In this document: positions 8,198-22,447 of the stretch, in pieces | How the letters are laid out: every line of letters begins with the position of its first letter | How positions within the stretch are numbered: position 1 is the first letter of the stretch | Assembly (NCBI GenBank): GCA_048538215.1 | Contig: JBLYPV010000001.1 | Span: 75,495 to 139,494, forward strand | Direction of reading: 5' to 3' | From: Patescibacteria group bacterium | Lineage (GTDB): Bacteria; Patescibacteriota; Minisyncoccia; Phycocordibacterales; GCA-2747955 | Length of the DNA stretch: 64,000 bases | Made by a program: the position numbers and the translations under genes | Notes under the pieces: model-generated | The model's database searches: none | The model's input: only the letters and a program-made list of their open reading frames with translations | What the model was told of the DNA's origin: nothing

Positions 8198-9439
8198 TTA
8201 GATACTATTGCCCGCCACAAAGCCAGTAGTCCAACATAATTGGAGAGAATAGCCACCTGATGGGCGATGTATGTTGAGCAAGTCACCAATGATATACAAC
8301 CCTTGATGCAAGGTGGATTCCATAGTCTGCATATGTATTTCAGACAGTGAAACACCCCCATCGGCAATAACGGCTCGGTCAAATCCCATTGTGCCGGTAA
8401 TCGGAAAGCGTATATCTTTGAGTGATTGTACCAAGCGCTTGCGATCCTCTTTCCCAAGATCTCCACTTGGGAGCTCGGCTCCCAAGTGGTTGTAATTGAT
8501 GATCTCTGTAGCGAGCTTTTTTGGTAGTAATTCGCTTAGTGTATTGAGGAGGGTTTTCTTAGGGTGAGTATCTAGTAGCTTACGGATGCGCTTATCAAGT
8601 AGGTCGAGCTCTGTATCGGGATATAAATCGATTGAGCACTCCACATCAGTGTACCAAGAGAGTAGCTCAGATACCTTATGGCTTATATTAAGAATCATTG
8701 GGCCGGAAATACCAAAATGTGTAAATAAGACTTTGCCCTTTATGTTTATTTTTTGCTTACGATCGGCGTAGAAGCGTACCTTTGCAAAGGACCAATCGAT
8801 GCCCGCAAGACGGTGGAGCCATTTAGCATTTGTCTTGAGGGGCACGATGCTGGGATTGGGCTTGGCGATAGTGTGGCCTTACGATGCAAGCCAAGAAAAG
8901 CCATCGCCGGTAGAGCCAGTCTCAGGAGCAGCGTAGCCACCCGTGGAGAGAATAAGCTTTGATGCTTGAAATGTGCCCTTACTTGTTGCTACTTGCCATA
9001 GGGTATCTTTTTTAGTGATTGTTTTTACTTGGTGATTTATTTGTATCTCGACACCACTTTCTCGGCAATAGCTCTGCATTGTGGTGGTCACATCTAAAGC
9101 TCGTTCGCTTCGTGGGAACATACGTGTACGAGCTTGGGTGACAAGTGGTAGACCTTTGGATTCAAAAAAATTAATAGTGTGCTGGACATTAAATATAGAA
9201 AAGGGAGTATAGAGATATTTTTTTGCACTTGGAAAACTTTCTAAAAAATCCTTGAAGTCGAGCTTGTGATTGGTGATATTGCATCGCCCACCTCCGGTAA
9301 TGGAAAGCTTTTTGCCCACCTTGCTATTTTTTTCTAGGAGGAGGACTCGCTTACCTCGCTCGCTTGCTCGACCAGCAGCCATCATGCCCGCTGGCCCAGC
9401 CCCAATCACAATAACATCATAGATTTGGGCGTTTTTCAT
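8198..9439 (-). pseudogene. HI0933-like NAD(P)/FAD-dependent oxidoreductase interrupted by one in-frame TAA
   Basis: N-terminal part VIVIGAGPAGMMAAG (Rossmann fold) and C-terminal part are in the same frame, separated only by TAA at 8879..8881 (...SWLAS*GHTIAKPNPSIVPLKT...). Confidence 0.7.
8463..8489. repeat. Palindromic repeat copy CCACTTGGGAGC-TCG-GCTCCCAAGTGG, in-frame inside the flavoprotein gene (encodes HLGAELPSG)
   Basis: 12 bp arms, 3 nt loop; identical core to copies at 15279 and 22415. Confidence 0.85.
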
Positions 9440-14294: not shown

Positions 14295-14846
14295 TTGAAT
14301 GGAAAGGAGGTGATTGAAATGGATGGTACGAGCTACCTGATTAGCAGGGCTCAATTCGAGGAAATTACAAAGGAGTGGCACTATGGAGATCCACTTCCCC
14401 AAAAGCTACATCCAAGTATTTTTCGCCCCAATCGTGATGCCCACCCCTATTGGTTTGAGCCGGGAAAGGCTGCAGATCTTCGTGGGGCATACCACGAAGA
14501 GCGCCTCAAATATTTGATCGAGCTCGGCAAAGAAGAGGGGGAGCATGATTGGATCAGAGCAGTACGACTGAGCCCTGCCTATAGTGTTCGTGATAGGCGA
14601 GGGATTGATCTCACTCTGGATACTTGCTTTGGCAAGGTGCATGTCCAGGTAAAGAGTAGTCTTAGGGGGATGTGGAAATTTCTCAGCTATACCCCTAAAT
14701 TTTCGTCGAAGAAAGTTATTCCCTGCGTAGTCGTGCACACAGATATGACAGATGAAGAAATTCTCTATCAGTTTGTGCAAAAAGTGCGTCCATTTCTCCT
14801 GAAGAAGAAGCGTGAGAAAGAAGTATGGGATAGAGAGCACAAGTAG
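14295..14846 (+). CDS. Hypothetical protein, GC-rich ORFan; possible PD-(D/E)xK-like motif (GIDLTLD...VQVK)
   Basis: 183 aa; GC content visibly above flanking genes; weak D...QxK nuclease-like pattern only. Confidence 0.35.
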   Translation: MNGKEVIEMDGTSYLISRAQFEEITKEWHYGDPLPQKLHPSIFRPNRDAHPYWFEPGKAADLRGAYHEERLKYLIELGKEEGEHDWIRAVRLSPAYSVRDRRGIDLTLDTCFGKVHVQVKSSLRGMWKFLSYTPKFSSKKVIPCVVVHTDMTDEEILYQFVQKVRPFLLKKKREKEVWDREHK

Positions 14847-14865: not shown

Positions 14866-16044
14866 CTACAGTGCCAAATTGCCGTCTACTCGAGTAATAC
14901 TACTCGGGTATTTTTTATGTATAAATCGTTGGTAGCCCGCCAGATTAATCATCAAAGCATTATCCCCTGAGAGAGAAAGATCGGGTAAATAGAGAGAAAT
15001 AGAATATTCATCAGCGAGTGTTTGAAATTGCTCTCGTAAATAGGCATTAGCCGATACCCCACCACCTACAATTAGATTTTGTACGTCATATGCCCCAATT
15101 GCTTGCCGAGTTTTATGTATCAATACTTCTGCTACTGCTTCTTCAAATTCAAGCGCGAGTTCTTGTTTGAATTTTTTTGATATACGAGCGCGTGATTCTA
15201 CAGCTCGACGCACAGCTGTTTTAAGCCCCGAAAAAGAAAAATTATAATCTCCACTGTGTATCATAGGCCGAGGCAGTCCCCACTTGGGAGCTCGGCTCCC
15301 AAGTAATCGAGCTAGATCTGCCTGGCGGGAAATTTCGGGGCCACCAGGGTAGGGGAGCCCAAGTAATCGAGCTGATTTATCAAAAGCTTCACCTACAGCA
15401 TCATCTAGCGTCTCACCAATAATTGTGTATCTATGTTTATCATCGATCCGTACAAGCTCAGTATGTCCACCAGAGATAAGTACCGCCAAGCTCGGATATG
15501 CTATTTGTTTTAGAGCGTAGCTATCATTATTTTTTGATTTTATTTTTTGTATTAAACTTGCGTATATATGCCCTTCCATATGATTCGTAGGAATAAGAGT
15601 GATATCCCAAATATGTGCTAGTGCTCGAGCAGTGTTGAATCCCGTCCAAAGTGCTATCTCGAGTCCAGGGCCGTATGTAACAGCAATGGCTTTAAGTAAG
15701 GGCTTTTTATATTGTTCGGCAAGAGTAATAATTTTTTCAGCAATCTCGGGATCTCTCTCAAGAATTGCGTGTATCGCTTTCTTATCTACAGCACTAAGCT
15801 CTTTTGGCTTTGTCCTAGCTTCAAGCAAGCCAGATTCTTTAAGAGCAGAAAATAAAAGAGGCATTATATTTTTCTGATGCTCTCTGCGTGCCAAGCTTGG
15901 ATATACGCCACCATATTTGCGATGTAGGGCAATTTGCGAATGAGTAAGATGTGAGAGTAGCTCAAACTCATTTTTATTACACCAATCAAGGATGGCAAGA
16001 GATGTTTCATCGCAAGATGTTTCTATCGAAAGTATTTTTGTCAT
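14866..16044 (-). CDS. tsaD: tRNA N6-adenosine threonylcarbamoyltransferase
   Basis: MTKILSIETSCDETS..., GLPYPGGP, SFSGLKTAV motifs of Kae1/TsaD; carries a palindromic repeat insertion. Confidence 0.85.
   Translation of the reverse strand: MTKILSIETSCDETSLAILDWCNKNEFELLSHLTHSQIALHRKYGGVYPSLARREHQKNIMPLLFSALKESGLLEARTKPKELSAVDKKAIHAILERDPEIAEKIITLAEQYKKPLLKAIAVTYGPGLEIALWTGFNTARALAHIWDITLIPTNHMEGHIYASLIQKIKSKNNDSYALKQIAYPSLAVLISGGHTELVRIDDKHRYTIIGETLDDAVGEAFDKSARLLGLPYPGGPEISRQADLARLLGSRAPKWGLPRPMIHSGDYNFSFSGLKTAVRRAVESRARISKKFKQELALEFEEAVAEVLIHKTRQAIGAYDVQNLIVGGGVSANAYLREQFQTLADEYSISLYLPDLSLSGDNALMINLAGYQRFIHKKYPSSITRVDGNLAL
15279..15304. repeat. Palindromic repeat copy inside tsaD (in-frame, encodes LGSRAPKWG)
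   Basis: CCACTTGGGAGCTCGGCTCCCAAGT; flanked by a 16 nt direct repeat CCCAAGTAATCGAGCT at 15298..15313 and 15358..15373. Confidence 0.85.
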
Positions 16045-21733: not shown

Positions 21734-21794
21734 TATCTCGTAAAACTGCCTAATAATATAGAATCCACATCGCGGAGTGGAGAAATGGTATCTC
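21734..21794 (+). repeat. Direct repeat copy 1 (61 nt): tRNA leader plus 5' fragment (acceptor strand and D-arm) of tRNA-fMet
   Basis: Identical to 21833..21893; followed by an inverted fragment of the fMet anticodon arm (GGTTATGAGCC, 21818..21828). Confidence 0.85.
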
Positions 21795-21832: not shown

Positions 21833-21893
21833 TATCTCGTAAAACTGCCTAATAATATAGAATCCACATCGCGGAGTGGAGAAATGGTATCTC
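21833..21893 (+). repeat. Direct repeat copy 2 (61 nt) running into the complete tRNA-fMet
   Basis: Exact 61 nt identity with copy 1, 99 nt period. Confidence 0.85.
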
Positions 21894-22168: not shown

Positions 22169-22210
22169 AATAAGCCAAGCATATTATATATATGCGGTCG
22201 TAGCTCAACT
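22169..22210 (+). repeat. Direct repeat copy 1 (42 nt): leader plus 5' fragment of tRNA-Asp
   Basis: AATAAGCCAAGCATATTATATATATGCGGTCGTAGCTCAACT identical to 22267..22308. Confidence 0.85.
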
Positions 22211-22266: not shown

Positions 22267-22308
22267 AATAAGCCAAGCATATTATATATATGCGGTCGTA
22301 GCTCAACT
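22267..22308 (+). repeat. Direct repeat copy 2 (42 nt) running into the complete tRNA-Asp
   Basis: Exact identity with copy 1, 98 nt period. Confidence 0.85.
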
Positions 22309-22414: not shown

Positions 22415-22447
22415 AAGCCACTTGGGAGCTCGGCTCCCAAGTGGCTT
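22415..22447. repeat. Palindromic repeat, longest intergenic copy AAGCCACTTGGGAGC-TCG-GCTCCCAAGTGGCTT (15 bp arms)
   Basis: Perfect inverted arms; lies between convergent tRNA clusters. Confidence 0.85.

Follow-up and report, generated by a model that had tools for sequence, protein, structure and literature searches.

In REPtrons (REP/RAYT systems), a transposase gene is flanked by copies of a palindrome (Bertels & Rainey 2011, PMC3116915; Di Nocera 2013, PMC3733652). Further accounts of these systems are those of Nunvar 2010, Ton-Hoang 2012, and Bertels 2017 (PMC5581495). Low-copy families tied to some RAYT groups are already known (PMC5581495), as are intragenic REPs and the palindromic elements of Rickettsia (PMC3733652). 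The ultra-small genomes of Patescibacteria carry a palindrome family that is REP/RAYT-like, and no earlier description of it was found; the literature on RAYT or REP in Patescibacteria/CPR, and on the core sequence given below, yielded nothing relevant. The Rickettsia palindromic elements (RPEs), reportedly described by Ogata in 2000, are said to be selfish palindromes of 100-150 bp that are inserted in frame in protein genes and add 30-50 residues. Templated mutagenesis by transient misalignment or template switching, known from the work of Ripley, Kunkel, and Lovett, is a mutational process acting at direct and quasi-palindromic repeats rather than a genetic element.

The window, which is the whole stretch of 64 kb analysed here, holds an intact tsaD gene of 392 aa (14866..16044, minus strand) that is host to a palindrome and to a 16-nt direct repeat. 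The palindrome is a copy of the REP-like, RAYT-like-associated family that replaces a variable loop, and the 16-mer is a composite that probably arose via templated copying. The ORF is identified as TsaD, the essential tRNA t6A37 threonylcarbamoyltransferase, by Pfam PF00814 (247.7 bits, E=2e-73), and the protein is 100% identical to that of an NCBI Patescibacteria MAG. The family-invariant residues are all kept, and the HxxxH metal site and the GGP, LPRP, and SGLK motifs are present. The AF2 model of this TsaD has a mean pLDDT of 95.9, with residues 234-247 as a helix and residues 248-259 as a coil, where the pLDDT is the lowest of the whole protein. Because of this placement, the palindrome is predicted to code the end of the helix and the loop, and the loop would be exposed at the surface. 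The nearest relatives, P0002 and P0003, are only 73% identical and do not provide an empty-site allele. Between mraY and tsaD, the window also has a 183-aa ORF (14295-14846, plus strand), which is missing from the syntenic loci L064 and L065, where mraY abuts tsaD. Pfam and NCBIfam scans of this ORF gave zero matches.

The core ACTTGGGAGC-TCG-GCTCCCAAGT occurs three times in the 64-kb window, compared with 0 in shuffles. The tsaD copy (core 15282..15304) has 10-nt arms and a 3-nt loop, and its in-frame reading is (L)LGSRAPKW. Its extension is one-sided, with CC at 15280-15281 and AA on the opposite side, where the other two copies have GG; on the tsaD coding strand, TT stands where both other copies carry CC. 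The second copy (8463..8489, core 8465-8487) is perfect with 12-nt arms (CC...GG), lies in the C-terminal part of an HI0933-like flavoprotein gene, and uses another frame than the tsaD copy, HLGAELPSG. It is accompanied, after a 4-nt gap, by a partial arm CTTGGGA. The third copy (22417..22445, core 22420-22442) is perfect with 13-nt arms and is intergenic, being located between the terminator-like hairpins of convergent tRNA-Asp(+) and tRNA-Thr(-). The predicted RNA hairpins of the copies range from -18 to -29 kcal/mol, with the tsaD copy at about -18. An Rfam gathering scan of the window gave tRNAs only, the palindrome being without an Rfam family.

The asymmetric loop reads TCG on the plus strand in each of the three window copies, and this shared orientation may reflect a strand bias relative to replication, although 3/3 is weak evidence (p=0.25). 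The HI0933-like gene (aminoacetone-oxidase family; 8198-9439, minus strand) has an in-frame TAA at 8879-8881 (GDGFSWLAS*GHTIAKPNPSIVPL), and its conserved VHS(I/V)TK motif is overwritten by the palindrome. The gene is probably a pseudogene; alternatively, the TAA could be a sequencing error.

Across the Patescibacteria, the core ACTTGGGAGC-N3-GCTCCCAAGT is present at more than 200 sites in dozens of assemblies. A scan of one genome per species for the core with any loop gives 63 loci, nearly all from about 35 Patescibacteria MAGs, and a metagenome scan adds 117 further stretches. The taxa include Nomura-, Kaiser-, Yonath-, and Paceibacterota, RAAC4_OD1_1, and others. Exact arms were imposed by the search, and the arm identity across species is thus partly an artefact. 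The 3-nt loop varies between genomes and is mostly constant, in either orientation, within one genome. Conserved flanks, a target motif (e.g. TTAC), and the GTAG/CGTC tag were sought around 80 sites, and none was found. A locus-specific complementary extension of at least 2 bp occurs at 30/79 sites, compared with 4.9 expected, and at 31/100 sites, compared with 6.3 expected.

Copies within open frames of at least 100 codons, with at least 25 codons on each side, account for 42/80 in the genome set and 50/100 in the metagenome set. These copies read almost only LGSxAPK or LGAxLPS, and rarely TWExxSQV; the core is stop-free in all frames unless the loop makes a stop. Half of the copies are thus translated, and the housekeeping proteins concerned comprise TsaD (three separate times), LigA, GatB, PurA, and DprA. 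The host proteins PurA (adenylosuccinate synthetase), DprA, LigA, GatB, and AsnB (asparagine synthase) are intact, with the DprA copy located in an interdomain linker. A PIF1-like helicase is a further host. Orthologous PIF1-like helicases (L016 1462 and L043 326) have the palindrome in the same C-terminal linker in different frames, LGAELPS and TWEPGSQV. The difference in frame implies independent acquisitions in one permissive linker. Orthologous sites are also common to L022 and L028 (LigA) and to L009 and L042 (Fmt-like), where the loop variant is each genome's own.

Partial or overlapping tandem arms adjoin copies at L020 7701, L025 2248, L047 1064, L024 3453, L080 1279/1303, and window 8451-8456 (e.g. 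CCCAAGTgggagctcagctcccaagt). Arm 6-mers (CTTGGG/CCCAAG) show a slight excess within 15 nt of the copies only, which stems from these partial tandem arms, and at 30-200 nt from the copies they are at the background density of 0.5 per kb. The tandem arms and the slight excess suggest local slippage or repeated hits at the hairpin.

At several loci, three palindromes with spacings of about 215 and 488 nt surround an ORF of 218-232 aa. This ORF is an IS200-like Y1 transposase (Pfam PF01797, 29.1 and 24.7 bits, with a gathering score of 23) and has the conserved HUH (NHYHFIL) and tyrosine (YLLHLSVYVNLN) motifs. One palindrome is found before the start of the gene, one after its stop, and one in frame inside it (QLGSRAPK). 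The transposase gene adjoins copies at 13/63 genome loci and 19/80 metagenome loci (32 in total). The internal palindrome peptide is at the same place in 25/120 of the transposase homologues listed (QLGSxAPK; e.g. L013 719-741 and L061 2449-2471), and the L007/L059 subclade has a palindrome at a different internal site. Some of the homologues are named 'REP element-mobilizing transposase RayT' by JGI. The only NCBIfam match is the RAYT equivalog NF047646, which has a cut-off of 80 but scores just 18.1 and 17.0 bits; the protein is therefore RAYT-like and not a RAYT equivalog. No transposase gene of this family lies within the 64-kb window, and none of the best 120 homologues comes from the source contig of tsaD. 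The association seen in other genomes suggests that the palindrome may be mobilised by a Y1 transposase.

The family resembles REPtrons in that a palindrome of 23-29 nt, short and rich in G+C, recurs around Patescibacteria genomes, each genome has its own sequence variant, and a single Y1/HUH transposase-like gene is flanked by the same palindrome in genomes other than that of the window. In contrast, the Patescibacteria palindromes lack the GTAG/CGTC tag, have no conserved flanks, and are perfect rather than bulged. The copies per genome are few, and about 50% are intragenic and in frame, whereas those of REPtrons are mainly extragenic. A conserved palindrome within the transposase ORF itself, and a protein far under the NCBIfam RAYT cut-off, are further differences. 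When compared to RPEs, the palindromes are likewise translated in frame in housekeeping proteins of a reduced genome, occupy loops and linkers, and leave their hosts intact. However, the Patescibacteria unit is 23-27 nt, replaces native residues in every aligned case, and has no sequence relationship to RPEs.

A host-selected, non-mobile site, such as an operator, a DNA-uptake or segregation signal, or an mRNA stability or translation hairpin, kept in tsaD for its function, would also give a repeated palindrome, but is an improbable explanation. Many species share identical 10-nt arms, even though the transposase gene next to them diverges to 46% identity, as selection by the host would have it; the arm identity, however, comes partly from the exact-arm search. 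The hairpins are stable (-18 to -29 kcal/mol), complementary flanks particular to each locus lengthen about 40% of copies, and one copy lies between convergent tRNA genes; against this, the copies have no consistent T-run or promoter context and no Rfam family. A host site also does not account for the low and patchy copy number, the specific association with the Y1 transposase gene, or the decaying copy in the TsaD homologue P0069. A terminator or operator role as the main explanation was rejected, since half of the copies lie within ORFs of unrelated genes, at positions that are not orthologous.

The preliminary description of this DNA placed 13 inserted residues before the PRPM of TsaD. In an alignment of 120 TsaD homologues, the spacer from GGP to LPRP is mostly 19-21 aa. 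It is 20 aa in the window TsaD (EISRQADLAR LLGSRAPKWG) and likewise 20 aa in P0004, P0008, and P0009 (e.g. LVSQQAELAR QTGGNKGRLS). P0002 and P0003, at 73% identity, have EISRQADLARQ followed by a longer, unrelated loop. The ancestral parts of the window TsaD are therefore the LPRP after the loop and the helix EISRQADLAR, in which the second Ala-Arg lies. The novel part is 30 nt (15277..15306, minus strand), which codes residues 247-256 (LLGSRAPKWG) at the position of the 10-residue variable loop of the relatives (QTGGNKGRLS in P0004). As judged from the aligned sequences, only these 10 residues are new, and 10 native variable-loop residues are replaced. TsaD stays intact because the palindrome replaces the loop residue for residue. 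The 13-residue insertion is thus contradicted by the equal spacers (20 and 20 aa) with ancestral AR and LPRP, and also on the structural side, where the region is only 5-6 residues longer than in solved TsaD structures. A second ARLLG is present in none of the TsaD orthologues.

Two further TsaD genes of Patescibacteria bear the palindrome. In TsaD of P0069 (51% identical; L066 2083-2105), the same loop holds a decayed copy, ACTTGGaAGC-cat-GCcCCCAAaT, which keeps the register to LPRP and 17/20 arm bases, with no 16-nt repeat alongside. TsaD of L138 (44% identical) has an intact palindrome at 733-755 in a different loop, before the LPD...DN motif, with a net gain of 2 residues. The longer loop of L064 was considered as the same palindrome and rejected, its sequence being unrelated on inspection by eye. 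A metagenome search gave 0 matches to a palindrome that keeps this register to the LPRP codons. In the TsaD homologues P0006 and P0007 (579 aa), the GGP-to-LPRP loop accommodates an entire histidine-phosphatase domain (PF00300, about 190 aa), which shows that this loop tolerates very large insertions.

Comparable lengths with and without the palindrome are found in other aligned cases. While the TsaD loop has 20 aa in both states, the HI0933-like stretch has 15 aa with the palindrome and 16 aa without, and the second site of the RAYT-like gene (L007/L059) has 8-12 aa with and 13 aa without. The change in L138 TsaD is a net +2 aa. The main internal site of the RAYT-like gene is less clean, with 9-14 residues in the presence of the palindrome and 8 in L007, which lacks it there. 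The palindromes mark permissive loops, and in the aligned cases they appear to replace native residues rather than to add sequence, with little or no net change in length. Such length-neutral replacement is not predicted by simple Y1 transposition. It could result from an insertion that was then offset by selected deletion, or from overwriting by a template switch. The family bears on how REP-type elements move and on how far selfish DNA shapes protein loops in reduced genomes.

The 16-nt sequence AGCTCGATTACTTGGG occurs exactly twice in the 64-kb window, both times on the minus strand (15373..15358 and 15313..15298), with a period of 60 and 44 nt between the copies. The closest match elsewhere in the window differs at 3 positions. 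The minus strand reads, in order, AAATC, AGCTCGATTACTTGGG, CTCCCC, the 44-nt spacer, GATCT, AGCTCGATTACTTGGG, and AGCCGAGCTCCCAAGTGGGG, and AGCCGAGCTCCCAAGTGG is directly after the second copy. The window has 3 local exact direct repeats of at least 16 nt at spacings of up to 300 nt, compared with 0.0 in 30 Markov-1 random sequences. The earlier report of a 16-nt duplication with a 60-nt period beside the palindrome in tsaD is therefore borne out as exact in the window and non-random, and the translations quoted with it, ARLLGLPYPGGP followed by ARLLGSRAPKWGLPRPM, are correct.

The two copies differ in their make-up. The first (15358..15373) comprises the third base of the Ser224 codon and the codons Ala225-Arg-Leu-Leu-Gly229 of the conserved ARLLGLPYPGG motif. 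The second (15298..15313) is a composite of 7 ancestral nt, TT, and 7 nt of the palindrome arm. The ancestral part, A + GCT CGA (15307-15313), is the end of the Leu244 codon and the codons Ala245-Arg246; TT (15305-15306) stands between these codons and the arm; and ACTTGGG (15298-15304) is the palindrome arm, which overlaps the repeat by 7 nt. Around the second Ala-Arg, the codons of the relative L064 are GAT TTG GCT CGA CAA; as GCT CGA is shared with L064 at this Ala-Arg, it is ancestral.

The repeat had been attributed to insertion of the element, which would have left a 16-nt target-site duplication, or to slippage at the hairpin, either of which would also have produced the 13-residue loop ARLLGSRAPKWGL. 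The repeat is real and non-random and abuts the palindrome, and a short direct repeat beside a repeated element is reminiscent of the target-site duplications of IS elements and MITEs. However, those duplications bracket the element, are of fixed length, and recur, whereas in tsaD the second copy overlaps the arm by 7 nt, the first is 44 nt upstream, and the other side of the palindrome is empty. The tsaD junction is also unique among 464 junctions (232 sites) in having a repeat of more than 3 nt of flank within 200 nt; a comparable repeat is present at 0/463 of the others. IS200/Y1-type transposition is not known to make a target duplication. Simple slippage at the hairpin should repeat the entire 60-nt unit, which is not the case here. 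Since neither the second AR nor the L of LPRP is new and there is no gain in length against P0004, P0008, and P0009, an insertion footprint is very unlikely. The outcome for tsaD is mostly a correction, as the gene is intact and has neither the 13-residue insertion nor a footprint of transposition. What remains of the proposed link to an element is that the palindrome belongs to a repeated element that is probably mobile and that the 16-nt identity is too improbable for chance, which together make element-linked copying plausible.

Pure coincidence would require that the element came to lie after Ala-Arg at the start of the variable loop, that its arm spells Leu-Gly, and that TT arose by ordinary mutation, with no copying at all. 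Ancestral codons and the invariant arm explain 14 of the 16 nt. The other two window copies have CC where tsaD has TT, and a change such as CCA to TTA would avoid proline; as TTA and CTT are common Leu codons here, TT could come from selection for Leu plus luck. Under a codon-usage model with the genome's own usage, however, the probability of the 16-nt identity is about 2e-5 (random flank) to 2e-4 (flank being a Leu codon that ends in A), even with the position of the palindrome right after Ala-Arg and the reading frame taken as given. When compared to L064, the first site also differs at exactly the three synonymous positions that together make it equal to the second site. At 73% protein identity, these three differences are only suggestive of copying. 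Coincidence is thus considered unlikely, and templated copying is likely because the 16-nt identity is too improbable under codon usage.

The 16-nt repeat would accordingly represent a one-off event, in which a single microhomology-guided templated copying took place between two look-alike sites. A copy of the REP-like palindrome now lies in the loop between helix 234-247 and the conserved LPRP. The start of its arm, ACTTGGG, matches the Leu-Gly codons found 60 nt upstream in the conserved ARLLG motif. The putative copying tract has microhomologies of 7 nt on each side, AGCTCGA and ACTTGGG. The copying may date from acquisition of the element, when the nascent strand could have moved by slippage from one AGCTCGA site to the other and exploited the match of ACTTGGG to the palindrome arm. 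Alternatively, a short tract may have been homogenised between the two look-alike sites after acquisition. Exact identity between nearby look-alike sites via 7-nt microhomologies is in line with templated mutagenesis, which can be length-neutral; in tsaD, its operation is suggested by improbability only.

A broader and rather doubtful conjecture is that the palindromes spread by length-neutral overwriting of tolerant stretches, through microhomology-primed template switches in replication, and not by classical insertion. In tsaD, a slip from the second AGCTCGA back to the first would be followed by copying of TTACTTGGG, by a jump via ACTTGGG into a palindrome, and finally by a return. If this were true, selfish hairpins would rewrite surface loops of essential proteins in minimal genomes, and tsaD would be a frozen record of the process.

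A further rival explanation is an artefact of assembly or sequencing, for example an inverted chimera or a short-repeat mis-join in the MAG. The source is a MAG, and palindromes can be library artefacts. Nevertheless, the same core is present in more than 60 independent assemblies from different projects, and the tsaD frame and conserved residues are intact on both sides of the palindrome. An artefact is therefore extremely unlikely.

Just upstream of the third palindrome copy, the window has two direct repeats at tRNA genes. The first (21734-21794 and 21833-21893) is 61 nt long with a spacing of 99, and contains the upstream region and the start of tRNA-Met (21870). The second (22169-22210 and 22267-22308) is 42 nt long with a spacing of 98, and contains the upstream region and the start of tRNA-Asp (22292). 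These duplications cover the first 17-24 nt or so of the tRNA gene. The 38 nt behind the first partial tRNA-Met copy include GGTTATGAGCC, which is the reverse complement of its anticodon arm.
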